A DNA stretch of 52,717 nt, from positions 1 through 52,717 of IMG/VR virus record IMGVR_UViG_3300035701_000046; one strand, written 5' to 3'. The translations under genes and the position numbers were made by a program. The notes beneath the pieces were generated by a model, which did not search any database, was not told the origin of the DNA, and worked only from the letters and a program-made list of their open reading frames with translations. This DNA is from a virus (Duplodnaviria > Caudoviricetes). Positions 2,867-44,382 of the stretch are shown here, in pieces. Position 1 is the stretch's first letter, and each line of letters starts with the position of its first letter.

Positions 2867-2911
2867 TCTTTCCTCACATTCTGTTAGTGGGCCTTTCGAC
2901 GACGCCGGGCT

Positions 2912-3835
2912 TTACTCGTGCTCTGGCGGTTTTATGGCATATTCCTTCTCGACGAATCCGGGCAGACGGCCATGTACCATAGTGTGCCGTACCCAAATCC
3001 GTCGGCCATCCCAGAGCCGACGAATATGACCACGTCTGAAATGAGAACGGAATCCAGGACCAGTGCCTGTCGAAGTATGTGGTGAGTCCCAAACTTCTGA
3101 ATCAACGACTAAAACCTTGTACGAATATAGTGGAGTTCTATCTCTTCGTTTTCTCGCGCGTACCAGCTTTTCAGGGGGGGCTATATCCCTCGTTTTGACG
3201 TTATGAAGTGAGAGCATTACCATGAGGTTCAGTGCCGCGCCGAAATCGGTAAGGTACTCATTAACTACTTTCGCAGGATCCAATCCCCCTGCTCGTAGCT
3301 TTTCCTGCATGCTTGGAGAAAGCGCCGAAGTTGCTTGGAACCCTGGGCCGTGATCAGGAAGGAACATGACTGCCGCTGTCCCCTCTGTCATCCATCTCGG
3401 ATATTCAGACTTGAAATACGATGTACTAAAAACGTAGAAAGCGCGTCCTGGACCGTCTTCTTTGAAACGTTCTTCTACGAATCTTTTCCCGACAGCGCCT
3501 GCGTTTGAAAAGACAAGCGTGATTTTCCATCCTCGGCAGATGATCTTAAATTCTGATCCCGTCTCTGGCGTGTCTTCTCTCAGAAATTCTTCGGTGAGAA
3601 TAATCGTAGGCTCGGCTGGCAGCCTTATCGTTGCCTTCAAATCTTCTGTGATCACATTTGTCTCACCAAGAATCATGGCAGCATCGGGCAAGTAGAAACG
3701 TTGCCCGAATTTCAAACCTCTCGCCAATAACACGAGATTGGTAGCGACACTGGGATCTGAACTGCGATCATTGACACACCGTGTAGCCAATTCTCGGATA
3801 TCTTTCTCGGCTTGTGTGAACTTGGACCAGTGCAT
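2912..3835 (-). CDS. hypothetical phage protein with C-terminal H-x-RRGH-x-R motif
   Basis: 307 aa, GGAG SD, 'RSHFRRGHIRRLWDGRRIWVR'. Confidence 0.8.
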   Translation of the reverse strand: MHWSKFTQAEKDIRELATRCVNDRSSDPSVATNLVLLARGLKFGQRFYLPDAAMILGETNVITEDLKATIRLPAEPTIILTEEFLREDTPETGSEFKIICRGWKITLVFSNAGAVGKRFVEERFKEDGPGRAFYVFSTSYFKSEYPRWMTEGTAAVMFLPDHGPGFQATSALSPSMQEKLRAGGLDPAKVVNEYLTDFGAALNLMVMLSLHNVKTRDIAPPEKLVRARKRRDRTPLYSYKVLVVDSEVWDSPHTSTGTGPGFRSHFRRGHIRRLWDGRRIWVRHTMVHGRLPGFVEKEYAIKPPEHE

Positions 3836-3848
3836 ATTGCTCCATCAA

Positions 3849-3976
3849 TTCCCGCGTGTCGGTTGGTCTGGTGCTGTCAGGGAGAATTGCAAAGCCCTTT
3901 TGCCCATTTGCCGTTATTTCCGACTTTGCAGGGCGCGACCTCACCGCTACTAGCGTAACGTTCGCGGACGCGGGAA
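3849..3976 (-). ncRNA. candidate structured leader RNA, motif copy A
   Basis: 9-bp closing stem TTCCCGCGT/ACGCGGGAA; shares CCGC..GCGG-TGAGG layout with 12685-12782. Confidence 0.5.
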
Positions 3977-3989
3977 CTCGTTATGACCC

Positions 3990-4169
3990 CTAGACCCCGA
4001 GGTCCGGCGCTGCGCTTTTCTCGATGAGGTCTCGAACCCGTGCGATCTCGCCTTCGACTTGCTCCGCCATGACGGCGGCGTCTTTGGCTTCGGCGAGGAA
4101 CTTGTCCCGCCTCTTTTCGAGACGCTTGATCTCGCTCTCCAACGACTTCTTCGCTCTGGTACTCAGCAT
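3990..4169 (-). CDS. small coiled-coil protein (below ORF-track cutoff)
   Basis: 59 aa MLSTRAKKSLESEIKRLEKRRDK..., AAGGAG SD. Confidence 0.65.
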   Translation of the reverse strand: MLSTRAKKSLESEIKRLEKRRDKFLAEAKDAAVMAEQVEGEIARVRDLIEKSAAPDLGV

Positions 4170-4192
4170 CGTTGCTCCTTCCGTGGTTTTGG

Positions 4193-4381
4193 TTACTCTC
4201 CTCTGGTCAGGATCGCAATCTCTCCTGCCAACTCCTGATGATAGCGACGGCTGACCGGCGTCGAGGCCGGTTTCGCCTGGGATTTATGGTGATAGTAGAG
4301 CTTCAGCAGTAACGCTCGTTGTCGTTTCTCGATTTCTAACAGCCTGTTGAGCTGCGAAGCAAAGTCTTCAAGATTTTCCAT
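4193..4381 (-). CDS. hypothetical protein
   Basis: MENLEDFASQ..., GAGG SD, packed operon. Confidence 0.5.
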   Translation of the reverse strand: MENLEDFASQLNRLLEIEKRQRALLLKLYYHHKSQAKPASTPVSRRYHQELAGEIAILTRGE

Positions 4382-4904
4382 CGGGCCTCTCTCGTGAGCG
4401 ATCACCACAGAACTTCTCTTCCAGAAGGTCAATGCGCGCTCTCTCTATCTGGATGTCTCCTGGGTCGCATTCGTCCGCGCAGAGATCAACCCAACCTCTC
4501 CAGGCCCCATACGCCTCTTTGAGCGCGGTCTTCATCTCATCGAAAGTAGTAATGACCCACTCACCCGAACCGCCGGATCTCACATGGCGGAGTTCTATCT
4601 GTAGACGTTCTTCAAGTGAAAAAGCCATCTCCACCTCCCTCTGACCGATTGGACATAGGTCAAAGGGATGCTGTCGGCATCTGGCGCATTCGTCAAGATG
4701 CTTATGGAACTGGTCGGGATTCGCTGTCGGCACATCTCCGTCTGGCCTTGTGCCGTGCATACGGTCCGTGACATTCGGGAAGTACCTCTTGAGCATCTCG
4801 CCTGGCGTCATTCCCTTCTCCGGGAATCTCTGACTGAGGCTCTTACACTGCTCACACGTCTCTTCGGGTCCTTCCCAGTAGTTGCACCAGATGTGATGAC
4901 CCAT
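4368..4904 (-). CDS. hypothetical protein with Cys/His clusters
   Basis: 178 aa, GGAGG SD; HHIWC..CEQC and HLDECARC..C. Confidence 0.65.
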   Translation of the reverse strand: MGHHIWCNYWEGPEETCEQCKSLSQRFPEKGMTPGEMLKRYFPNVTDRMHGTRPDGDVPTANPDQFHKHLDECARCRQHPFDLCPIGQREVEMAFSLEERLQIELRHVRSGGSGEWVITTFDEMKTALKEAYGAWRGWVDLCADECDPGDIQIERARIDLLEEKFCGDRSRERPDGKS

Positions 4905-5065
4905 CTCTTCCCTCCGTTTACCCGCCGACGCTTCGAGCGACGAGAATCACGATCCCGACGAAAAGCCCTGCTAAGGCGGCGATTGTTGCGATTACGATGA
5001 CGATCGCCACTACGAGCACGAACAAATCTCGAATCGCCGAGAACAATTTCGTCCTTTCGGTTTCC

Positions 5066-5407
5066 TCACGGCTCTGCTTGATACTCGGCTGTCGTCCGCC
5101 AATCTCGCTTCGTCCATATCCGCGCTGCTCGCGCCTTCCTCTCCTCATGAGCGAGTTTCCATGCTTCCTCAGAGAGTTGACACCAGCAGGGGGACTGCGT
5201 TAGATGTCCGATTCGCTTCGCTATCTTTTTCAGGTCTTCAGAGCAGATTCGTCCGAACTGGATGAACCCGCTTTGGTGCCATTTCTCCGCGATCTCGAAA
5301 TCCTCGCGATTCATGTGGGCCGTCTTAACCCGTCCGGCGTCCACTACCTGTGTCTCCAGAAAGAGGAGAAGGCTTCTCTCCTCTTTCGTCATTTCTGCGA
5401 GCGTCAT
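5066..5407 (-). CDS. hypothetical phage protein
   Basis: MTLAEMTKEERSLLLFLET..HMNREDFEIAEKW; AGGAG SD. Confidence 0.7.
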   Translation of the reverse strand: MTLAEMTKEERSLLLFLETQVVDAGRVKTAHMNREDFEIAEKWHQSGFIQFGRICSEDLKKIAKRIGHLTQSPCWCQLSEEAWKLAHEERKARAARIWTKRDWRTTAEYQAEP

Positions 5408-5423
5408 GTCTACTCTCCTGGTG

Positions 5424-5741
5424 CTAAGCTGATGGCTTACGATAACGGGGTTCTCCGTGTAACGGACAGAACGCCGTTCCCTCTGTCGGGTTGCACTCAC
5501 AAGCGCGGTCTCCGATATTAGGCGGGGCATCGAAGGCGGCAATGGCGGCGCAAACTTCCGCGTCGGCAACGGTGTGCTCTTCAAGTGTTGACGCATCTAT
5601 TTTCTTTCTCGCCGCCTCGATGAGCGGCTTGACTCGCTCCGCGTGGGCGTCCCAACCGGCATCGAACGCCGTTGGTGTCATCGGTTGCAGCGGTGCGCTT
5701 GTTGTCCACCACTCCTCAAACGCCCTATCCTTGTCGGTCAT
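5424..5741 (-). CDS. hypothetical protein
   Basis: 105 aa; ATGA coupling with upstream gene. Confidence 0.6.
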   Translation of the reverse strand: MTDKDRAFEEWWTTSAPLQPMTPTAFDAGWDAHAERVKPLIEAARKKIDASTLEEHTVADAEVCAAIAAFDAPPNIGDRACECNPTEGTAFCPLHGEPRYRKPSA

Positions 5742-5938
5742 TCGGCCACCCCCTTGCTCTTCAAAATGATCTGCTCAAAGTGCTGGATGTAGTGGATCGA
5801 TCCACTCTCGTGCCGCACACGCCAACAATCGCCCGTCGCCTGGGGTACGTAGAGCACCAGGCAGTTGTGCATAGAGGCATCGTCGCCAAAGTAGATGTTT
5901 ACCAGATCGCCCTCTTGAATCTTGTCCTTGTCGATCAT
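5738..5938 (-). CDS. small beta-rich hypothetical protein
   Basis: 66 aa, GGAGG SD, ATGA coupling. Confidence 0.65.
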   Translation of the reverse strand: MIDKDKIQEGDLVNIYFGDDASMHNCLVLYVPQATGDCWRVRHESGSIHYIQHFEQIILKSKGVAE

Positions 5939-6123
5939 GGCTTGGCCTCCTCAATCTCGCATTTGCACGGCCACGACCCGCTACCCCACCCGCATATAGG
6001 ACATATCCATCGAGCGCCACACGCGCAATTACCCTCGCCGGTCCACGGCTCCGGCTTTGGTTGATTCCATTTGTACGGGCGTAGGTCTGGATGGTGGCAA
6101 ATATGCTGCTCTTTCCCACTCAT
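5935..6123 (-). CDS. small Zn-finger protein
   Basis: CxC/CxxC clusters, ATGA coupling at both ends. Confidence 0.55.
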   Translation of the reverse strand: MSGKEQHICHHPDLRPYKWNQPKPEPWTGEGNCACGARWICPICGWGSGSWPCKCEIEEAKP

Positions 6124-6329
6124 TTCCCCTCCCTTGCAATCCGTTGGCACACGCGGGAGGCGGCAATAGCGTCGGAAAGCGCCATCTGTTTGTCGGACAC
6201 CTCAAACTCCTCGCACGCCTCGTAGTCCACCGCCGCCCTCAACACCGGCTCCACGTCGGCGCGGTAGGTGGTGAAGTCGTCCGGCTGATCTCTTATCGGC
6301 TCACCAGGATCGCTGTATTTCTCGCTCAC
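6120..6329 (-). CDS. hypothetical protein
   Basis: 69 aa, GGAGG SD, GTG start. Confidence 0.55.
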   Translation of the reverse strand: MSEKYSDPGEPIRDQPDDFTTYRADVEPVLRAAVDYEACEEFEVSDKQMALSDAIAASRVCQRIAREGK

Positions 6330-6345
6330 TTCTTTCCTCCCTTGA

Positions 6346-6834
6346 CTACCCGGAAACAGGGGATCGTTTGGCCCATTTCTGGCAAAGCATCATGTGGCCT
6401 CGGGCCGCGTCCCACGCCTTGTTGTATCCAGTGAAATCAAGTTCTAGCCCCGATATTTGTGGAAGCCCGCAACCGCAGTCTTTCGATACACACGGATCTC
6501 CCGCCCTGAATACCATCGTCTCGTATTTGCGATCATAGCCGATGTACGCGAATCCAAACTCTTTCATGTAGGCGTGGTCAAAATCGTCGCCGCGAAGTTG
6601 CTGGTTAGCAACTAGCCAAGCTGGTTTGTAGACCTTCGCGTGTATTTCTCTGCTCCCGCGCTCCGGCCAGTACTCTCCGACCGTCGATATGAGCCACGGG
6701 CCAACCTTCGTGCAAAGATGAAAACGGCACCACTGGGCGCAGATGAAGTGCCCGGCGTGCCCGAACCACTTCCACCGCTGTTTTGGAATCGGCCTATCCC
6801 TCGTGACCCAGACCCTCATGGTTTTCTTCGGCAT
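6346..6834 (-). CDS. hypothetical phage protein
   Basis: 'WKWFGHAGHFICAQWCRFHLCT..STVGEY..YETMVF'; start uncertain. Confidence 0.7.
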   Translation of the reverse strand: MPKKTMRVWVTRDRPIPKQRWKWFGHAGHFICAQWCRFHLCTKVGPWLISTVGEYWPERGSREIHAKVYKPAWLVANQQLRGDDFDHAYMKEFGFAYIGYDRKYETMVFRAGDPCVSKDCGCGLPQISGLELDFTGYNKAWDAARGHMMLCQKWAKRSPVSG

Positions 6835-6853
6835 GGCTTCGTATATCGGATTC

Positions 6854-7405
6854 TTACTCAATCGGCAATGCCTGAACATCCCACTGGAGCAAACCGTCCA
6901 GGGGCCTTTCGTCTTTCACGGGCCGACGCACTCGGACAAACACGCCGCTACTCTGAGGATCCGGGTCTATGCGCTCAATCTCCATATCCGCAAACGCAAG
7001 TCGCATTATTTCTGCCGTGAAACGCCAGTGATCTCCGGGATAGTCGTGTCGTCCAAAACCAGGCCCGCGAGTCGTAAGCATCAACACTCCACCAGGCTTG
7101 AGCGTCTGTTTCATCGCCACCACAGCCTCTTTCCAACGCTCGGCGTGTTCCAGCATTTCTGTACTGACAACCAAGTCGAATTGTGATGGCATTTCCTTGC
7201 CGACGTCGCAAACGTCCATCACTTTATCCACCCCTAACCCGGCCTGTAGATCGATGCCCAAGTAGTAAAGCGGCTTGAAAGCCTTCAGCAACCCGCGCCA
7301 AGATCCATTCACGTCTAACGAACCCGCTTCCAGAACGGTCTTTCCCTTGACATCTTCTTCCTTGATGTTTTCCTGTCCCCACCGCAACACTGATTGATGA
7401 CACAT
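6854..7405 (-). CDS. class I SAM-dependent methyltransferase
   Basis: 'VLEAGSLDVNGS', 'FDLVVSTEMLEH', 'LKPGG', 'HDYPGDHWRF'. Confidence 0.88.
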   Translation of the reverse strand: MCHQSVLRWGQENIKEEDVKGKTVLEAGSLDVNGSWRGLLKAFKPLYYLGIDLQAGLGVDKVMDVCDVGKEMPSQFDLVVSTEMLEHAERWKEAVVAMKQTLKPGGVLMLTTRGPGFGRHDYPGDHWRFTAEIMRLAFADMEIERIDPDPQSSGVFVRVRRPVKDERPLDGLLQWDVQALPIE

Positions 7406-7410
7406 CGCCG

Positions 7411-7632
7411 CTAACTCTTTTCCAGCAGATCCGCTAGCTGTGCATCTGTGAGATCCAACAAAACCCGTAGCACGATTTCCTCATTCACCAAACCACCGCA
7501 GAGGACGTGGGGAATATCATGCCGCTCGTTTTCTTCTTCAAACGCCAGGTTCTTTACCGTAAGCGGAAGACCACAACTAGGACATTGCTCCACTGAGTTC
7601 GTCCTCTCGACCTTATACCTTTTTAGTTTCAC
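7411..7632 (-). CDS. small Zn-ribbon protein
   Basis: CPSCG..HVLC. Confidence 0.5.
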   Translation of the reverse strand: MKLKRYKVERTNSVEQCPSCGLPLTVKNLAFEEENERHDIPHVLCGGLVNEEIVLRVLLDLTDAQLADLLEKS

Positions 7633-7683
7633 GCCAAGTTCGTCTAGCCAGATTCGCTTCCCAAGGCAACATCTGCAGATTTG

Positions 7684-7983
7684 CTAGCCCTCCACCGGAT
7701 CGTATGTCGCCGCGAAGATGTCCGGCTTGCAGGGATAGAGTTCGCCCTTGACGCCGCGTATGATGTAGTCTCCCCACGACACAGATAACGTGCCCTCTTT
7801 TGTGCCAATCAACAGCCGATGGCGGGCTGTATCTGTTGGATCAATAAACAGCGCACCTTCTCCGATCGGCTCATTCCACGCGAGATTCAGCCAGTTCGGC
7901 CACTCGCTGTTGTCCGACCGCCTAGCCTCCGTCATTTGGAAAGCCTCAATCACAACCGGCTTTTTCCTGAACTTGTAGTTCAT
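7684..7983 (-). CDS. conserved phage protein (KKPVVIEA..GDYII..YPCKPDIF family)
   Basis: characteristic motif string; AAGGAG SD. Confidence 0.85.
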   Translation of the reverse strand: MNYKFRKKPVVIEAFQMTEARRSDNSEWPNWLNLAWNEPIGEGALFIDPTDTARHRLLIGTKEGTLSVSWGDYIIRGVKGELYPCKPDIFAATYDPVEG

Positions 7984-8012
7984 CTCGTCTCCTTCCGCCC
8001 GCCGTAGCGGGG

Positions 8013-8294
8013 TTACTTCCCCTCTTGTCCGAACACCTCGGCGCGGATCGCGGCCTTGTGACAGGAGAACGCGCACGGCGTTTCTTCGCATTCACAGAGG
8101 CTATCGTGAAATGCATCCGACAAAGCCAGAATCTCTCTCAACCTCTCTCGCAGCGTGGCGATCTCCTCCCGCTGTGCCGCGTCGTGGGAATCAATAAAAT
8201 CTTGCGCCGCGTTTCGTTCTGATGGAGTTGGGCTGTTTAGCGAGCGCATCTGATATTCAAATACTTCCCTCGTCAACGCCCTGCTATCGGTCAT
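8013..8294 (-). CDS. hypothetical protein
   Basis: ATGA coupling with upstream gene; coiled coil plus Cys cluster. Confidence 0.55.
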   Translation of the reverse strand: MTDSRALTREVFEYQMRSLNSPTPSERNAAQDFIDSHDAAQREEIATLRERLREILALSDAFHDSLCECEETPCAFSCHKAAIRAEVFGQEGK

Positions 8295-8647
8295 TCTCTC
8301 CCTCCTTTCCATTCTTCCCAGTCTTCACCATCGGATAACACAGCAAACTTCCATACCCAAGAAGACCCGTCTACGTAGAGCCTAGGAAAATCCCAAATGT
8401 TCTGCTCATCGGACGTATACCGAACACGCTCCAGGGGAAGTCCTGGCATCTGTATTTCGTGGCAACGCTGCCCGCGCCACACTAGGAACGCATACCGGCC
8501 CTCCCCGTAGTCCAGCCCCGGCACCCTCACCCATGACAGATCCAACTTGTCGCAATCAGTGACGAAGTGCTTGATGTTGTTTATGGCGTTCTCCTCGGTG
8601 GCTCCGTCAACCGGCCCCGCCCCGGGATTAATTATTACCATGCTCAT
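8291..8647 (-). CDS. hypothetical phage protein
   Basis: 118 aa, purine-rich SD, 'IQMPGLPLERVRY..FPRLYVDGSSW'. Confidence 0.7.
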   Translation of the reverse strand: MSMVIINPGAGPVDGATEENAINNIKHFVTDCDKLDLSWVRVPGLDYGEGRYAFLVWRGQRCHEIQMPGLPLERVRYTSDEQNIWDFPRLYVDGSSWVWKFAVLSDGEDWEEWKGGRE

Positions 8648-8759
8648 TTCCCTCTCCCTCCGTTAGTGGGGCGCTGGCCGCGTGGTCCCGAATTGGACAT
8701 TTGCGGAACTCCCACACAGTCACCAGCGCCCCGTATCTTGCCCCGCGTGTCGGTTGAAC

Positions 8760-9107
8760 CTAGACGGGGAGCTTCCCCTGTCGATCTTCCGGGGGGATCG
8801 AGGTCTCTCGCACGAGCGCGCCGTTATCCTTGCGGAACCACATTTTCTTGTCGTCGGTGAAGTTGAGAACGACCTTGCACGAGACATTCCTGTATTCCCG
8901 ACCGGTTGAGATCTTCATCGCCGCGATCGTCGCATCGGCTTTGGCAAGTGCGATCTGCGCTCCGATCTCTTTCGCGAGGGAAGCCTTTTGCTCTTCGAGC
9001 GTTTCGATTCTTTGGGTCCGTTCCGCGAGGATGGACCCGGCTTCCTTGATTTCTTCGGGCGTCAATTCGCAGGCGACGTACAAGGTTTCGGTGATATCCT
9101 CGGCCAT
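8760..9107 (-). CDS. hypothetical coiled-coil phage protein
   Basis: 115 aa, GGGAG SD. Confidence 0.75.
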   Translation of the reverse strand: MAEDITETLYVACELTPEEIKEAGSILAERTQRIETLEEQKASLAKEIGAQIALAKADATIAAMKISTGREYRNVSCKVVLNFTDDKKMWFRKDNGALVRETSIPPEDRQGKLPV

Positions 9108-9108
9108 A

Positions 9109-9393
9109 TTAGCTCCCTTCGCTTTTCTGTGAGTGGCCTTTTTCGTAACTCCCGTTCTTCAAGGCTTTCCAGTCTTCGTCTTTCATGCGGCGGTAACGAC
9201 CTTTGAGGATGCGGCGGCATTCGTAGCAAAGGCATCGCGGCACAAAATCCCAAATGCCATCTTCGAAGATCTTATACGGACCCCCCAAATCCCAGCTCGA
9301 TGAATCACAATATCCGCATCGGGCTTCTGGACTCCTGGCAGGGCCGTCATCCAATCCCTCTTCGCCGTTATCGTCACGTTCTCTTTGCCTCAT
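9109..9393 (-). CDS. CGYC..CxxC zinc-finger protein, paralogue 1
   Basis: ATGA coupling at 9390-9393; aligns with 9713-9925. Confidence 0.6.
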   Translation of the reverse strand: MRQRERDDNGEEGLDDGPARSPEARCGYCDSSSWDLGGPYKIFEDGIWDFVPRCLCYECRRILKGRYRRMKDEDWKALKNGSYEKGHSQKSEGS

Positions 9394-9728
9394 TCGAACT
9401 TCCACTTTTCCTTCATCCGGGCGATGAGATCCCGCTCCTCGCCTTTTTTGGACCGCTGCGATGCGTCCATCCACCGTTCCCAATAGCGAACCGCTTTCTT
9501 GAGATCCCGGCGCATCGCGTCCTTCTCGCGGATGAGTTCCTGAGTTTGCTCGAAGACGTTCTTATTCCTGAGTACCGCTATCTCAAAAGCCTGGGTGGTG
9601 ATCACCATCGAGCGGTTCAGCTCGCGGAGCGCACGCTTCCGGCGATCAGACTTCCTCTTGGTTTGTTCTAGCTGCTCCTGGAGATTTCCTACCAATTCTC
9701 CCGCCGCTCTTTCTATTTGGTCTGACAT
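9390..9728 (-). CDS. coiled-coil hypothetical protein
   Basis: MSDQIERAAG..., GAGGG SD. Confidence 0.65.
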   Translation of the reverse strand: MSDQIERAAGELVGNLQEQLEQTKRKSDRRKRALRELNRSMVITTQAFEIAVLRNKNVFEQTQELIREKDAMRRDLKKAVRYWERWMDASQRSKKGEERDLIARMKEKWKFE

Positions 9729-9925
9729 GTTTCCCTCACGTATCTGAAGTTCCCTCGGAAATACTTCCGGCACGTACCGCATAGTCTTCGTGCGACTGGG
9801 TCCCAACTGCCGTCTTCACATCGAAGCTGCGCGGGGCGACTTACGTCGTCGCTTGGGGAGCAGCAGTATCCGCACTTTTCCCTTGGGATCTCCCGAGTAT
9901 CTCTTTCGTCATCATCTCGTCGCAT
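9713..9925 (-). CDS. CGYC..CxxC zinc-finger protein, paralogue 2 (start uncertain)
   Basis: CGYC-S-S-D..EDG-WD-V-R-LC--CR shared with 9109-9393. Confidence 0.5.
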   Translation of the reverse strand: MRRDDDERDTREIPREKCGYCCSPSDDVSRPAQLRCEDGSWDPVARRLCGTCRKYFRGNFRYVRETCQTK

Positions 9926-10089
9926 TTTGAGCACCGATAGAGAATCGTTGTGACGCCAAACGACAAGCGTTCGAGCGTCTTCATTGTGCCGTCAGTGTCG
10001 TCGGAGGAACCTTCGCCGCTGACTTGTGCCGCAGCCGGAGAAGCGTAGAATCTCTCGACCTCTTTGTAGTCGTGTTCACATTCGCTCAT
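9841..10089 (-). CDS. small Zn-ribbon protein
   Basis: CEH..CSKC; GAGGTG SD; first gene after promoter at 10119-10148. Confidence 0.65.
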   Translation of the reverse strand: MSECEHDYKEVERFYASPAAAQVSGEGSSDDTDGTMKTLERLSFGVTTILYRCSKCDEMMTKEILGRSQGKSADTAAPQATT

Positions 10090-10118
10090 GTGACGCACCT
10101 CTCTTCACAGGAGGAACG

Positions 10119-10148
10119 ATCATCCCACAGAGGCGATGCCTTTGTCAA
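10119..10148 (-). promoter_or_regulatory. sigma70-like promoter of leftward early operon
   Basis: TTGACA-N18-GATGAT with TGTGG before -10; resembles 12634 and 37375. Confidence 0.65.
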
Positions 10149-10182
10149 GAATTATTGTAGTTTACAAGCAGGAGATCGACAG

Positions 10183-10704
10183 TCAATCGGGCCAGGAATC
10201 CGTGCAATCCGTCTCGGGCCGTAAAGGCTTGTCCCACGAGTCTGTCACCGGGGCCTCGGCTTCTCGCGCTCGGGCGAGCGCCTTACAATACTCCGAGGTC
10301 CAGTATTCACTCGCGAGGTCTCCGATGCTCAGGCGGGAAAAATGGTGGGCAAGAAGCCAATCGACGAAGCCGGTCCCGATCTGGATGCGCTCGCGGTAGA
10401 GTGGCCCCCACTCGGCTTCTCGGGAGAATGGCGGCAACTCCCGCCACCTCGCATTGTGCTCCGGGAACATTTCCTGGCGTAGGTGCGCCATCATCCGGTG
10501 GACACGCTCGAAGTATCGAGGGGAACTGATCTGTGGCGCTGAGACCCCGTTCGACTTCTTGAACGCTTTTCGGAAATGCTCTATGATCTCCTGGAGTGCC
10601 CGGCGATCAAGCGTGATCGGATCGAGGGGATTGTCGCCGCGCGGGCGCAGCGGGGGACCTACAACGAAGGAAAGCTCAGGCTCGTGGCAACGCTTTGTCG
10701 TCAT
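10183..10704 (-). CDS. hypothetical protein
   Basis: ~173 aa, AGG SD. Confidence 0.55.
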   Translation of the reverse strand: MTTKRCHEPELSFVVGPPLRPRGDNPLDPITLDRRALQEIIEHFRKAFKKSNGVSAPQISSPRYFERVHRMMAHLRQEMFPEHNARWRELPPFSREAEWGPLYRERIQIGTGFVDWLLAHHFSRLSIGDLASEYWTSEYCKALARAREAEAPVTDSWDKPLRPETDCTDSWPD

Positions 10705-10833
10705 CGTCGGACCTACCTTCAACGGAATGTGGAGCGGAAAGGCGAGACCAACGGATACGCTCCAATTCTACAGAGACCCTGCCTCATGGCAAGGCCGTTT
10801 TCCGCGAGCGGGGGACAAACCTGTGGGAAAAAG

Positions 10834-10842
10834 TTATCCACA
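10834..10842 (+). promoter_or_regulatory. DnaA-box consensus
   Basis: TTATCCACA in a divergent intergenic region. Confidence 0.5.
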
Positions 10843-10904
10843 TTTTTTTTCGAGCCAGGGCAAAAAAGACTTGCGGTATAAGCTAAGTCGGCGTTTATAG
10901 TCTT

Positions 10905-11253
10905 GACTCGTGTGATACCCTGCGACGGGGTGGGCGGGGAATAAGCATGTACAAGCATCTGTGGTAACCCGGTCGAAGACCGACTGCCGGAGTGGAACCT
11001 CTCCAAAACCATCTTTCTACACAAGTTCCAATCCGCCAGGAACCCCCCGAGAACGGTGTGGGGTAGCAGGAAACCCCTACAGCCTCCGCCTTCCGTTCAG
11101 GCACAAGGATCCCTGGCTTGGACAAAACGATACCGATGGCTTGGGAGGGTAAACAAAACGGTATCGCTGGCACCACCCAACCCCACCGAGCGGCTCGCGA
11201 GCCAGCTCGCTCGCGAATCCGAATAGCAGTCGGTCCCCCCGTCAAAGAGAGTC
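10905..11253 (+). ncRNA. candidate large structured ncRNA (~350 nt)
   Basis: nested long-range stems 10924-30/11237-43, 10978-87/11226-35, 11051-56/11093-98, 11128-35/11159-66; no credible ORF. Confidence 0.6.
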
Positions 11254-11299
11254 GCCCCCAAGAGGCCCGGATTCTGTGTCCAGTTGTAAGGAGGTTTCC

Positions 11300-11920
11300 A
11301 TGATAGAAATCATCTGTATTCTTGACCGAAGTGGGTCAATGACGAGGATAAAGAACGATGCGATCGGATCCTTCAACACGTTCCTGACCGAGCAGCAGAA
11401 GGTCCCCGGTGACGCGGTCGTGACGGTGGTGCTTTTCAACGACGAGTACCGGGCGCTCTATGAGCAGAAACCGCTCGCGGAGGTCCCGCTCTTGACCGAA
11501 GAGACGTATCAGACGACTGGGTCCACGGCGCTCCTCCACGCGATCTGCCGGACCCTCGAAGCTCCCGACAAGCCGGAGCGCGGTATCGTCGTGATCCTCA
11601 CGGATGGCGAGGAGAACGCTTCCCCGGTGGAGTACACCAAGGAACGCGCGGCGAAGGCCGTGAAGGCGCTGGAGGACAAGGGCTGGCAGGTCCACTATCT
11701 GGCGGCGAACCAGGATGCGTTCGCGGAAGGGGCGGCCCTCGGGATCACCCATACGTTGAACTATGCCGCGACGCCCGATGGAATCCGGCACGCTTATGCG
11801 GTGGCCGGTCAATCGACGATGTGCTATCGTACCGGATTCCCGCCGCATGTGACGTTGCCCGATGGGACGACGGCGGATCCGATCGCGTTCCAGAGCACGA
11901 CGACCGATGGAAAAGACTGA
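11300..11920 (+). CDS. von Willebrand factor A domain protein
   Basis: MIDAS 'ILDRSGSM', 'GSTAL', 'VILTDGEENAS', 'YLAANQDA'; AAGGAGG SD. Confidence 0.93.
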   Translation: MIEIICILDRSGSMTRIKNDAIGSFNTFLTEQQKVPGDAVVTVVLFNDEYRALYEQKPLAEVPLLTEETYQTTGSTALLHAICRTLEAPDKPERGIVVILTDGEENASPVEYTKERAAKAVKALEDKGWQVHYLAANQDAFAEGAALGITHTLNYAATPDGIRHAYAVAGQSTMCYRTGFPPHVTLPDGTTADPIAFQSTTTDGKD

Positions 11921-12626
11921 CCGGATTCTCACTGGGGATGCCCTGACCGTTCTCGGGACGCTTGATTCGGAGAGCGTCCAATGCTGTGTCACGTCGCCCC
12001 CGTATTGGGGGCTACGTGACTACGGCACGGCGACGTGGGAAGGTGGGGACGCGGCGTGCGACCACAGGGTAGGTGGGCAGGTGCCGGACAACAAAGCTCC
12101 GGGCGCAATAGTAACCGGCCAACGACCGGGCGTTGACGCGAGCGTGTGCCGCAAGTGCGGTGCTTGTCGAATCGACGACCAACTCGGCCTTGAATCCACG
12201 CCGGAGGAGTATGTCGCCCACATGGAGGCGATCAAGGAACCAATGGCCGAGGCGTCTGCGGCAAGGTATGAATACTCGTTCGGCGGGGAAAAGAACATCC
12301 GACTAAAGGCAACAGATAAGCCAACCGCTCTTGTCGGAAACAGAGATGTCACCGATGGCCGTAACCGCCGCTCGGTCTGGACGATCACGACGAAGCCTTA
12401 CAAAGAGGCCCACTTCGCCACGTTCCCCCCGGAAATCCCCAAGCTGTGCATCCTCGCGGCAACGAGGCCGGGCGATGTCGTCCTCGACCCCTTCTTGGGG
12501 AGCGGGACGACGGCTGCGGTTGCCCTGGAATTCGGCAGGCGCTACATCGGGATCGAGCTGAAGGCGGAGTACGTCGAACTCGCGAGGATGCGGTTGAAAC
12601 AGACTAACGTCGGTCTCGGGATTTGA
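11907..12626 (+). pseudogene. beta-class N4/N6 DNA methyltransferase with apparent in-frame internal deletion
   Basis: TSPPY, HFATFP, VLDPFLGSGTT, GIEL present; the core between 'PEEYVAHM' and 'EAIKEP' is missing. Confidence 0.7.
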
Positions 12627-12633
12627 ATAATTC

Positions 12634-12662
12634 TTGACAACCCCATCGGGACGTGAGAAGAT
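12634..12662 (+). promoter_or_regulatory. sigma70-like promoter
   Basis: TTGACA-N17-GAAGAT. Confidence 0.65.
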
Positions 12663-12684
12663 CGCCCGGCTAAGTTGTCGTTGT

Positions 12685-12782
12685 CCGAATTCCCCGTGTC
12701 CGCGAAAGCGGTGAGGAGCAAAGGCCCGGAACACTGTCTGTTCGCGGGCGATGGAATCCAAAGACAGCGCGGGGCAATTCGG
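12685..12782 (+). ncRNA. candidate structured leader RNA, motif copy B
   Basis: closing stem CCGAATT-CCCCGTG/CGCGGGG-CAATTCGG, CCGC-GAAA-GCGG hairpin, CTGTCT/AGACAG stem. Confidence 0.55.
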
Positions 12783-12806
12783 TATCTCAAGGAAGGAAGG
12801 TTGACG

Positions 12807-13328
12807 GTGAAACTCATCGAGGCGATGAAGCGGATCAAAGAGCTTCAGCAGAAGGCGGACGATATCAAGAAGAAGGTCGCGGATAACTGCGCCCTTCTCT
12901 CGATCGAGACGCCGGTGTACGGGAAGGATCAGATCACGCAGATCACCGGCTGGCTCCAGTCGTGTTCGGACATCAGGAAAGAGATTCTGAGACTCCGAGT
13001 CGCGATTCAGCGGACGAATCTGGAGACCAAGGTCGAGGTCGATTTCGGCGAGCCTACGGGCCGCGTGACGAAGACGCTTGCCGAATGGATCCACCGGCGG
13101 CGCGATCTGGCGAAAGCGGATGAGACTCTCTGGATGTCTCTCACTGACCGGAATCTGAAAGAGCAGAGGGTTTCCTCGGGTCCGGCCCAGCCGGGTACGG
13201 ATATCACGATCATTCGGTTCTTCAACCCGGTACAGCGGGATCAGATGATCGCGCTTTACCGGGCGGAGCCGGGGATCATCGACCGGACGCTTGAAGTGAC
13301 GAATGCGATCACCGATCTGATCGAGTAG
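12807..13328 (+). CDS. coiled-coil protein resembling the DIP1984/DUF6847 family
   Basis: GTG start after AGGAAGG; 'MKLIEAMKRIKELQ..IQRTNLET..TLAEWIHRR..LEVTNAITDL'; family assignment from memory. Confidence 0.65.
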   Translation: MKLIEAMKRIKELQQKADDIKKKVADNCALLSIETPVYGKDQITQITGWLQSCSDIRKEILRLRVAIQRTNLETKVEVDFGEPTGRVTKTLAEWIHRRRDLAKADETLWMSLTDRNLKEQRVSSGPAQPGTDITIIRFFNPVQRDQMIALYRAEPGIIDRTLEVTNAITDLIE

Positions 13329-13335
13329 GTTTTTG

Positions 13336-13659
13336 TCGCAGCTTACGTGAGGAGATAAAAACCGGCAGTAGTGTAGCGACTCGACTACAGTTGAAACCCG
13401 TAGTCACGCCTGAAAGGGCACAGGTTTATGGAACCTGCAATTAAAAACCTCGTCGGACTTGAAATCCGATGCGATCCTTCAAGGATGCAAGGTTCAAGAC
13501 CCAAGGCAGTAAGGCTCAAGTCGAGTAAGGCAGCAAGACGCAAGAGAGTAAGGATGGAACGCTGAGGCCGCAAGGCGAGTAGGCGAATGTCCTCGGACAA
13601 GTTATCGTACTACACTCCGGCCCGGATACTTCTGAGGCTTCCCTCCTGGGAAGCTGCGA
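13336..13659 (+). ncRNA. candidate structured ncRNA with a YAAG repeat tract
   Basis: terminal stem TCGCAGCTT/AAGCTGCGA, inner stem AGTGTAG/CTACACT, four local hairpins, ten YAAG units at 13480-13552. Confidence 0.75.
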
Positions 13660-13702
13660 TTTAAGACGATTGTTGACGTTGAACAAGAAAGGGGAACGGA
13701 TA

Positions 13703-13867
13703 ATGGCTTTCAATCAAAACGAACTCGCGAAGAGAATCGCGGCGAAAGGCGAGATAAAGGCGGTTCAGGCCAAGGAAGCGATCCGCGAGACTCTTTACGA
13801 GTTGGCGCGGCTGAGCGACAAAGACCTAGCGCGGGTTCTCAAGAAGTATCAGGCCATTAGTTTCTGA
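13703..13867 (+). CDS. short HU/IHF-like protein (N-terminal helices only)
   Basis: 'FNQNELAKRIAAKGEIKAVQAKEAIRETL' resembles HU helices 1-2; no beta-arm. Confidence 0.55.
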   Translation: MAFNQNELAKRIAAKGEIKAVQAKEAIRETLYELARLSDKDLARVLKKYQAISF

Positions 13868-17458: not shown

Positions 17459-17500
17459 AAAACCCGAATTGTAGGTTTATACCAGCCCATAGTATGGAGG
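17459..17500 (+). repeat. 42-bp exact repeat, copy 1 (promoter + RBS cassette)
   Basis: AAAACCCGAATTGTAGGTTTATACCAGCCCATAGTATGGAGG identical to 44341-44382. Confidence 0.9.
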
Positions 17501-17524: not shown

Positions 17525-18349
17525 ATGTCCGAACGTCCGAAGACCCCCGAGCTGTCCATTGTGGATGGCGGCAAGCCAGAGGGACAGGCGGGCCAATCCC
17601 GTCCCGAGGGTTTACCGGGGCAGAAATGCTTGGCGCGGCGTCGTGTTTGCGCATGCACTCACCGCTTCGTCAAGGATGAGCGGATCGTCGATCGTGATCT
17701 ATCTGTGCGTATGCGGCCAGATTACGACCGGCGAAAGCTAGGGGTTTGCCCTAGCTGTGGGCTGGTCCGCGAACTCTGCGGCCAGCCTGCGGTAGAAGGC
17801 CGTTATGTTTGCCGCTTCCACGGCGGTAAAGCAGGCCGGAAGCCGATGGTCCCTGTTATTCACGCTCTCAGGGACGAAGACCGCGATGCTGTCGTCGCTT
17901 CGATCGAAGCGAAGGACGAAAACCTCACCGTCGAATTCCACGTCGTCAAGCACATCCTCGATTCCGTCCTCACCCAGTACGACCCCGAACTCGCTGACCT
18001 AGATTTCGCTGAACGCGCTGTCGCGCTGCTCGATCGTGTTTCTTCGATCGGCGAGCGTCGGGCGCGTCTACGTCTGCTTGTCCCGCCAGACCTAGAGAAG
18101 CTCAAGCTCGACTTCGGGGATCCTCGTGTTTCGCTCGCCATCAAAGAAAAGATGCGAGACAACTACGAGAAGGCTATCCGGGGAACCGTTCAACTGATGA
18201 TCGAAGCGGTGAGGCGGGATCCCAAATTACTCGAAGGCGTTATCAAGCTCCTGCCTGAGCGGCTTCGGAACTACATCGAAGTCGTTTCGGCTCGACCCGC
18301 ACAATTCCAGATCACTCTACCAAATGCCCAAGAAACCCCGGAGCAGTAG
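17525..18349 (+). CDS. terS: putative terminase small subunit (HGG zinc-finger type)
   Basis: 'CGQPAVEGRYVCRFHGG'; directly upstream of and overlapping terL. Confidence 0.65.
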   Translation: MSERPKTPELSIVDGGKPEGQAGQSRPEGLPGQKCLARRRVCACTHRFVKDERIVDRDLSVRMRPDYDRRKLGVCPSCGLVRELCGQPAVEGRYVCRFHGGKAGRKPMVPVIHALRDEDRDAVVASIEAKDENLTVEFHVVKHILDSVLTQYDPELADLDFAERAVALLDRVSSIGERRARLRLLVPPDLEKLKLDFGDPRVSLAIKEKMRDNYEKAIRGTVQLMIEAVRRDPKLLEGVIKLLPERLRNYIEVVSARPAQFQITLPNAQETPEQ

Positions 18350-44340: not shown

Positions 44341-44382
44341 AAAACCCGAATTGTAGGTTTATACCAGCCCATAGTATGGAGG
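44341..44382 (+). repeat. 42-bp exact repeat, copy 2
   Basis: identical to 17459-17500. Confidence 0.9.

Follow-up and report, generated by a model that had tools for sequence, protein, structure and literature searches.

The stretch of DNA analysed here, referred to as the window, is the complete IMG/VR virus record IMGVR_UViG_3300035701_000046 (52,717 bases; Caudoviricetes), for which CheckV gives a completeness estimate of 41%. It carries three intergenic elements – A, B, and a reduced form, C – that appear to be diverged copies of one stem-loop and that are the subject of this report. The minus-strand genes in this part of the window run leftwards from approximately 11 kb, the last ones encoding a DnaC-like loader (1759-2793) and a DnaB-like helicase (217-1578), and the plus-strand genes begin at approximately 11.3 kb with those for a VWA protein and an N6/N4 DNA methylase. 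Copy A, on the minus strand, is located between an open reading frame (ORF) of 59 amino acids (aa; 3990-4169, minus) and a gene for a protein of 307 aa (2912-3835, minus). Copy B is on the plus strand, downstream of a TTGACA promoter box (12634) and upstream of a gene for a protein of 173 aa (12807-13328, plus). Using a repeat search and blastn-short among the intergenic regions, we found the promoter-like site upstream of B at 12634-12662 (plus), where it consists of TTGACA, a spacer of 17 nucleotides (nt), and GAAGAT. The box to which it belongs, AATAAnTCTTGACAA, occurs in three copies with similar downstream spacing, at approximately 10148 (minus; this site was also returned by a consensus scan), 12634 (plus), and 37375 (plus), and these boxes are likely to be the early promoters of the phage. 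Intrinsic terminators, i.e., a G+C-rich stem followed by a U run, were not listed at A, B, or C by the consensus scan; the sequences on the 3' side read GAUGGAG in A, UAUCUCAAGG in B, and CAAGAUACGG in C.

A previous description of this DNA (the sequence-only reading) had presented A and B as two diverged copies of one leader-RNA motif. The strings it listed for both copies are present where it had placed them. Inspection of the sequence sets the limits of A at 3978-3847 (minus), with the stop codon of the 59-aa ORF 11 nt upstream; the element is non-coding and has the same sense as the gene that it precedes. Its 5' strand reads AGUUCCCGCGU (3978-3968) and is followed by CCGC (3967-3964), a 16-nt loop, and GCGG (3947-3944), and the sequence continues with UGAGG (3943-3939), GCCC (3934-3931), GACA (3860-3857), and CGCGGGAAUU (3856-3847). 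The helix that closes the element, P1, pairs 3978-3968 with 3857-3847 over 11 base pairs (bp) with one G-U, and is present in the minimum-energy fold as well as in the centroid fold. The base of the second helix, P2, pairs 3967-3964 with 3947-3944 and encloses the 16-nt tip. A Shine-Dalgarno sequence (SD), GGAG at 3843-3840, follows 3 nt beyond the element, and the ATG of the 307-aa gene is at 3835.

The refined limits of copy B are 12685-12782 (plus). B is likewise in the sense orientation of its downstream gene, and it is non-coding because the start common to nine homologues of the protein encoded downstream, MKLIEAMK, coincides with the GTG at 12807. Its 5' part consists of CCGAAUUCCCCGUGU (12685-12699), CCGC-GAAA-GCGG (12700-12711), UGAGG (12712-12716), and GCCC (12724-12727), and its 3' part of GACA (12763-12766) followed by GCGCGGGG-C-AAUUCGG (12767-12782). 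P1 of B pairs 12685-12699 with 12767-12782 and comprises 15 bp with one bulge and two G-U pairs, P2 pairs 12700-12703 with 12708-12711 below a GAAA loop, and a third hairpin, P3, spans 12724-12749. As had been described, the loop of P2 is thus GAAA in B and 16 nt long in A. The SD of the 173-aa gene, AGGAAGGAAGG at 12790-12800, begins 7 nt after the element, so that both copies end shortly before an SD, in agreement with the sequence-only reading.

Two further details of that reading held only in part. A hairpin with GGGC in its loop can be drawn after GCCC in both copies, formed by UGCAAAG/CUUUGCA in A and by CUGUCU/AGACAG in B, but the minimum-energy fold of B contains a nested GCCCGGAAC/GUUCGCGGGC hairpin in place of the latter. 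The string GACAG had been placed at the 3' end of the motif. GACA does precede the 3' strand of P1, but the GACAG of B lies within the drawn stem, so that the two descriptions of B conflict. Each copy also contains a short ATG-started ORF, at 3907-3845 (minus; 20 codons, 44 codons in a sibling contig described below) in A and at 12751-12804 (plus; 17 codons) in B. The encoded peptides are unrelated, and both ORFs stop at most 10 nt from the start of the main gene. Short ORFs of this kind are expected in GC-rich sequence and are noted here only.

Copy C (8774-8741, minus) is a reduced form, recognised by its sequence, by blastn-short, and by a covariance model (R3, see below). Pairing is possible between its CCCCGU (8769-8764), which overlaps the stop codon at 8762-8760, and GCGGGG (8746-8741); in the fold of C itself, P1 appears weakly. 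In a blastn-short comparison among intergenic regions, the 15 nt at 8756-8742 proved the same as those at the 3' end of A (3865-3851), and GACACGCGGGGCAA (8751-8738), which extends 3 nt beyond the limits of C, matches the 3' end of B in 14 of 15 nt. Between C and the next SD lies a separate hairpin (8668-8732, minus) that is closed by 10 bp, GGGGCGCUGG / CCAGCGCCCC. The closing stem of this hairpin, with a different interior, comes directly after copy A in the sibling contig.

The likeness between A and B is confined to approximately 35-40 nt, i.e., P1, the CCGC/GCGG of P2 with UGAGG, and the GACA before the 3' strand of P1. These matches are collinear (5' block, P2, UGAGG, GACA, 3' block), and both elements belong to the non-coding part of the window, which makes up only a few per cent of it. 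When B was compared with the whole window by the Smith-Waterman method, A was the top match with a score of 36.5 vs 30 for the next. MAFFT never recovered the block alignment from A and B, either alone or together with the sibling allele. We built a covariance model, R3, from A and its sibling allele and ran it against both strands of the whole window with filters off. Apart from the self-match to A (170 bits), its second match was C (8774-8740, minus; 16.1 bits, E 0.065) and its third match B (12689-12775; 9.6 bits, E 1.9). C and B are thus the best two non-self matches in 105 kb of searched strand and are returned with exact P1 boundaries; R3 aligns them only via P1 and the GACA/3' junction and skips the interior. 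A structural descriptor of our own recovers A and its sibling in contig L097 and gave four background matches in 1.36 Mb, each strand searched, one of which (L010) lies inside an ORF; this rate predicts approximately 0.16 matches per window. The descriptor misses B because the 3' strand of B begins one base later.

These sequence comparisons lead us to regard A, B, and C as relatives that have approximately 35-40 nt of P1, P2, and junction sequence in common. The claim of one motif in two copies therefore stands as far as reciprocal best or near-best matches, non-coding position, sense orientation, and retention in sibling phages are concerned, but not for a shared interior fold: the relation appears to be one of the ends and P2, and a common interior of A and B is not demonstrated.

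Fold predictions differed between the copies. The fold of B has an energy of -48.1 kcal/mol (z -3.86), and none of 200 shuffles was as stable. The opposite strand of B reached -41.2 kcal/mol (z -2.91), i.e., the sense strand is approximately 7 kcal/mol more stable, and this excess fits the G-U pairs in P1 and an RNA made from the sense strand. In B, the 5' strands of P1 and P2 form an uninterrupted run of 19 paired bases. The interiors of A and B are unlike in length and in predicted fold, and the distance between the halves of P1 ranges from 17 nt in C over 67 nt in B to 110 nt in A. In both A and B, the SD is outside the predicted fold. RNAalifold returned P1, the P2 base, and the GCCC/GGGC pairing on an alignment of three rows that had been anchored by a script and fitted by hand. 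The sequence-only reading had seen a conserved topology with changed sequence. We found the reverse for the common parts: P1, P2, UGAGG, and GACA are conserved as sequence, the interiors differ, and no compensatory change was seen.

From the presumed topology, a cis-regulatory RNA or ribozyme with a pseudoknot had been proposed. That the elements are a self-cleaving ribozyme or a ligand-sensing riboswitch of this kind is, in our view, scarcely credible. The outline of a three-way junction and the GNRA-capped P2 of B are in its favour, and a GCCC...GGGC pseudoknot is possible in one drawing, but for B this is one of two mutually exclusive drawings and nothing in the predicted folds speaks for it. 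The interior is wholly different between A and B, the SD is not sequestered in either fold, and we found no homologue beyond one phage lineage. Scanning the whole window with Rfam 15 at gathering thresholds gave no match. At E<=10, nothing that overlaps A, B, or C came within 25 bits of a family threshold, and no ribozyme, riboswitch, leader, or CRISPR direct-repeat (CRISPR-DR) family was found around them. We had also considered a hammerhead-like junction (UGAGGA ... GACA); this was rejected by eye, as the junction strands differ from the hammerhead core, and no Rfam hammerhead model matched. Since no known RNA class was matched, the function of the elements remains putative.

The search for homologues led to the same phage lineage and not further. 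A strict pattern over P1, P2, and UGAGG had no match in 2.9 million viral contigs, and neither did the pattern GACACGCGGGGCAAGATAC in viral contigs. In metagenome contigs, the strict pattern gave 36 matches, and only one of these contigs, L097 (1,926 nt), a sibling 97% identical to the window, carries the element. The other 35 matches are in GC-rich sequence where the remaining parts of the element are missing, one of them being a tRNA gene read backwards. A covariance model built from B alone, R1, had no match at E<=1 in 58 loci, 57 of which are viral-contig loci of the family of the 173-aa gene (the gene-B family), and in nine wider loci it gave only matches with E>=0.77, none of which was convincing. 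Inspection by eye of the regions upstream of first nine and then 57 gene-B-family loci revealed no B-like leader; partial likenesses to B at L013 and L035 were rejected, as they received no score from R1. Similarly, R3 had no match at E<=1 in 28 loci of the family of the 307-aa gene. A blastn search with 2900-4200 against 50,697 phage records gave no match, and locus scans of viral contigs with single proteins, the 307-aa protein or the DnaC-like loader, returned no relatives. The failure of R1 and R3 in the loci of both gene families suggests that the elements belong to the phage lineage and not to either gene family. The sequence-only reading had suggested a covariance-model search of phage contigs and had named a lack of further homologues as evidence against its proposal. 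Our searches found no homologue outside the near-identical lineage in the collections scanned, which by that measure counts against a widespread functional RNA class.

Comparison with the sibling contigs showed that the elements are retained and that they lie at the edges of exchangeable DNA. L097 is 97.1% identical to the window over 4292-3851 and 96.7% identical over 2821-1881, and it retains the 59-aa ORF together with A. Over the first of these segments (442 nt), there are 13 differences, two in the upstream ORF and 11 in the tip of P2 (3949-3961), where L097 has a new hairpin of 6-7 bp on the unchanged CCGC/GCGG base; the remainder of A is identical. The rebuilt tip on an otherwise identical element suggests that the P2 tip is dispensable or free to vary. 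The DNA sequencing runs X2-X7 contain 34-71% of the words of the region, and contigs from such runs carry either allele: the allele of the window is found in runs X2 and X4 (four differences in 532 nt and three in 650 nt, respectively), and the sibling allele in a contig from run X5. B is identical in run X5 over 541 nt (12629-13169) and has two differences over 1,183 nt (12618-13800) in run X2.

L097 leaves the window right after ...GACACGCGGG and continues with a sequence 80% identical to 8756-8644, i.e., the 3' part of C and the hairpin that follows C. Different small genes come next, the 307-aa gene is absent, and L097 rejoins the window at the loader gene. The joint in the run X5 contig connects 8741 to 3851 over 15 common letters. 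On the side of B, the DNA methylase gene (11805-12618) is swapped for 83 other letters in run X2 with the joint at 12618, before the promoter of B. The methylase region 11805-12618 is thus another cargo slot, ending just before that promoter. With joints at the end of A and near the promoter of B, the elements are placed at the edges of exchangeable cargo.

These joints are also what an explanation at the DNA level would start from, in which the elements are linker remnants at recombining module boundaries, or sites for DNA-binding proteins, and the RNA folds are incidental. The conserved parts are conserved as sequence and not as pairs, a natural recombinant joins the 3' end of A to the C region over the 15 common letters, the methylase gene beside the promoter of B was replaced in run X2 with its joint at 12618, the gene after A differs from its neighbours in third-position G+C content in a way that looks foreign, and A folds equally well on both strands. 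The clustered changes in the P2 tip are typical of template switching in a quasi-palindrome, a process that produces such clusters. On the other side, all three copies have the same sense as the genes that flank them, the sense strand of B clearly folds more stably than its complement, the spacing of the P1 halves – from 17 to approximately 110 nt – is ill-suited to a dimeric DNA-binding site, and no target-site duplication was seen by eye. We regard an exclusively DNA-level function as unlikely, though as a serious competitor. Known systems of this type are REP- or MITE-like palindromic intergenic repeats (repetitive extragenic palindromic sequences and miniature inverted-repeat transposable elements, respectively) and the short conserved linkers at phage mosaic joints. 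Like these, A, B, and C have a P1 that resembles terminal inverted repeats, are intergenic, occur in several copies with different interiors, and have a natural recombination joint exactly at one end of A. Unlike REP and MITE elements, there are only three copies, all in sense orientation, and no matching transposase was noticed; of the features that define a MITE, the inverted ends are present in the form of P1, and no flanking direct repeat was found by eye.

We interpret A, B, and C tentatively, with a probability of about 40%, as a lineage-specific family of stem-loops at mRNA boundaries or in mRNA leaders. The copies would be transcribed within mRNAs in the sense orientation and would fold in vivo, and they may affect processing, stability, or translation. 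The signature of such a family would be a GC-rich helix of (U)UCCC(C)GYGU with RCGCGGG(G) and a GACA that adjoins its 3' strand on the 5' side; in A and B, the closing helix would hold the CCGC/GCGG hairpin, UGAGG, and then a variable domain. A stable structure 3-7 nt 5' of a free SD could define or protect the 5' part of the downstream message, and it could insulate downstream translation from the upstream context. The conservation of P1 and P2 as sequence further suggests that a single factor may bind or cut the elements. The genes that follow, AcrVA2/FinQ-like after A and DIP1984-like after B, are accessory genes. At the DNA level, the common ends serve as joints for the exchange of downstream cargo between related phages. 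Early mRNAs of phage T7 provide a precedent, as they contain intergenic stem-loops that act as RNase III processing and stability sites. A, B, and C resemble these sites in being several diverged copies in one phage, in their sense orientation, in their position after a stop codon and before the following SD, and in having short common blocks around a long helix. P1 measures 11-15 bp, or 15-19 bp with P2 stacked, which may be compared with the roughly two turns of double-stranded RNA of an RNase III-type site. The elements differ from the T7 sites in that the helix of A and B closes a multi-branch interior and not one irregular hairpin, and in that they are known from sequence alone, without similarity to any described site.

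Several results weigh against a stem-loop family. The plain sequence similarity between A and B is marginal: the real score was reached by one of 60 dinucleotide shuffles, and by two of 40 and none of 40 at the other two gap costs. A is absent from the R1 matches in the window at E<=10, and when R1 was run on just the 294 nt of both elements, A received only 1.8 bits and was misaligned. The scores that R3 assigns to C and B are not significant by themselves, and a loose pattern of the P1 halves alone found nine pairs in the window vs a mean of 7.4 in 200 shuffles. The fold of A is no better than that of shuffled sequences (z -1.36; 17 of 200) and no better than that of its own opposite strand. 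No compensatory change was found in P1, the P2 base, or the GCCC/GGGC pairing in comparisons that involve either near-identical siblings or two diverged copies aligned by hand. The clustered P2-tip changes, finally, would also be expected from template switching in a DNA quasi-palindrome.

The first of these points would also follow if the elements had no common function, i.e., if A and B were unrelated GC-rich intergenic hairpins with CGCG-rich strings of 9-10 nt that are alike by chance. The sequence-only significance of approximately 0.02-0.05 and the failure of the B model to find A fit this explanation, as do the 35 apparently chance occurrences of the strict 5' pattern in metagenome contigs. 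Hairpins of the form TTCCCCGYG-loop-CGCGGGG are moreover common as single sites in many genomes: the pattern TTCCCCGYGN{2,8}CGCGGGGNAA occurs in at least 120 stretches of species-representative genomes, with one or two sites per locus among the 80 matches listed. However, A tops the search with B and, independently, B and C top the search with A; the matches are collinear, both elements fall within the small non-coding fraction of the window, and the background of the descriptor is only approximately 0.16 per window. A chance resemblance therefore seems rather unlikely to us. We consider A, B, and C real, related, and kept within the lineage, ordinary in kind, and putative in function, and the original observation as partly confirmed.

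The gene downstream of A (2912-3835, minus) encodes a 307-aa AcrVA2/FinQ-like protein and carries the precomputed label PF26125 (AcrVA2-like). In the ESM Atlas, its neighbours are AcrVA2-like proteins, both by features (score 0.97; 27 of 30 matches) and by structure (template-modelling score, TM, 0.73). The protein had no match in NCBIfam, in PDB sequences, or in Pfam, the copy of which that was scanned apparently lacks PF26125. H265, R267, and H270 (H-x-R-x-x-H) are invariant in five aligned relatives and have the same spacing as H286/R288/H291 of AcrVA2, which are reported as needed for activity in a preprint (bioRxiv 10.1101/2022.11.29.518452); the same preprint describes the AcrVA2 family as widespread on mobile elements and as including FinQ. 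The G+C content at third codon positions (GC3) of the 307-aa gene is 0.46 vs 0.6-0.7 in its neighbours. Because of this low GC3 and its absence from the 97% identical sibling contig, the gene has the look of counter-defence cargo that can be exchanged. The AcrVA2-like gene is located directly 3' of an ORF ending in ...VWN...GPLC..C....C.HN... in many of the 28 viral loci (L226-L250), an order that looks like a conserved two-gene arrangement.

The position of A directly upstream of an AcrVA2-like gene is the main attraction of another explanation, according to which the closing helix with its 5' flank mimics a CRISPR repeat and acts as a loop-expanded solitary-repeat decoy or as a Cas6-type site near an anti-CRISPR-family gene. 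P1 with its 5' flank presumably resembles a type I-E CRISPR repeat. The 3' flanks appear unlike a type I-E handle. Furthermore, the sibling without the AcrVA2-like gene still has A, and no CRISPR-DR family of Rfam appeared at E<=10. The hairpin pattern in the species-representative genomes, which covers only short loops and a 3' flank of the B/C type, showed no array among the 80 matches listed. RNA anti-CRISPRs are described in one report (Camara-Wilpert et al. 2023, PMC10651486) as solitary repeat units, often beside acr genes, with Cas6f cutting at the 3' base of the stem. Compared with the units as presented there, A and B are similarly small, non-coding, and intergenic with a G-C-rich stem, and A lies beside an anti-CRISPR-family gene; they differ in that A, B, and C are not contiguous units of repeat length, the loop being 17 to approximately 110 nt, and in having neither a CRISPR-DR match in Rfam nor a matching array among the 80 matches listed. 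We consider such mimicry highly improbable.

The gene downstream of B (12807-13328, plus) encodes a 173-aa DIP1984/DUF6847-like protein. It matches Pfam DUF6847 with E 6e-4, below the cut-off of the family, and NCBIfam DIP1984_fam with E 1.4e-7 and 31.7 bits vs a cut-off of 70; in an alignment, nine relatives show 44-60% identity and the common start MKLIEAMK. While checking the leaders of these homologues, we found a separate and well-supported structured RNA at 13571-13668 (plus). A covariance model built from 11 leaders of gene-B homologues, R2, matches 44 of the 57 gene-B-family viral loci at E<=0.01, 11 upstream and 33 downstream of the gene, and scores 43.6 bits at 13571-13668 of the window. 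The hairpin, CCNNGG..AAGUU...AACUUCCNNGG followed by CUUCC, is 96.4% paired over the 44 aligned matches, and six of its 11 pairs are changed on both sides; its covariation score was reached by none of 500 shuffles, on an alignment fitted to the model. On its 5' side are 8-10 (C/U)AAGG repeats (13470-13570 in the window), and in some loci a tRNA gene also precedes the motif. The repeats presumably resemble GGA-containing sponge RNAs of the CsrA/RsmA type.

The R2 RNA shares its neighbourhood with B, adjoins the same DIP1984/DUF6847-like gene, and in 11 related phages holds the leader position that B has in the window. In contrast to B, which was found in none of the 57 loci, it is present in 44 and shows strong covariation. 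B is not a member of this group, as the best R2 score on the 294 nt of A and B was 2.2 bits. The R2 motif has no Rfam match, and an RNA of this kind next to DIP1984/DUF6847-like genes is apparently undescribed so far. It is much better supported than the family of A, B, and C and merits attention in its own right. An exact 42-nt direct repeat was seen elsewhere in the window (17459-17500 and 44341-44382, plus). It ends in TATGGAGG, its copies lie just upstream of two different genes with starts near 17525 and 44384, and it is probably a common promoter or ribosome-binding region.

The neighbours of A and B also invite a more far-reaching proposal, in which A, B, and C are mRNA sites for one RNA-binding or RNA-cutting factor of phage or host and together form a small post-transcriptional regulon that sets when AcrVA2/FinQ-like and DIP1984-like accessory counter-defence genes are expressed, while marking the slots in which such cargo is swapped between phages. 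The factor could be a Cas6-type nuclease drawn by the repeat-like stem, or an Aca-like regulator. We regard this proposal as a long shot. If one factor does recognise the conserved stem, counter-defence genes would here be controlled post-transcriptionally. For the present, the finding is a modest one: a lineage-specific set of intergenic stem-loops of putative function. The elements flag the exact joints where anti-CRISPR-family and other accessory genes enter or get replaced, and they may in this way be of use for reading cargo slots in the genomes of uncultured phages.

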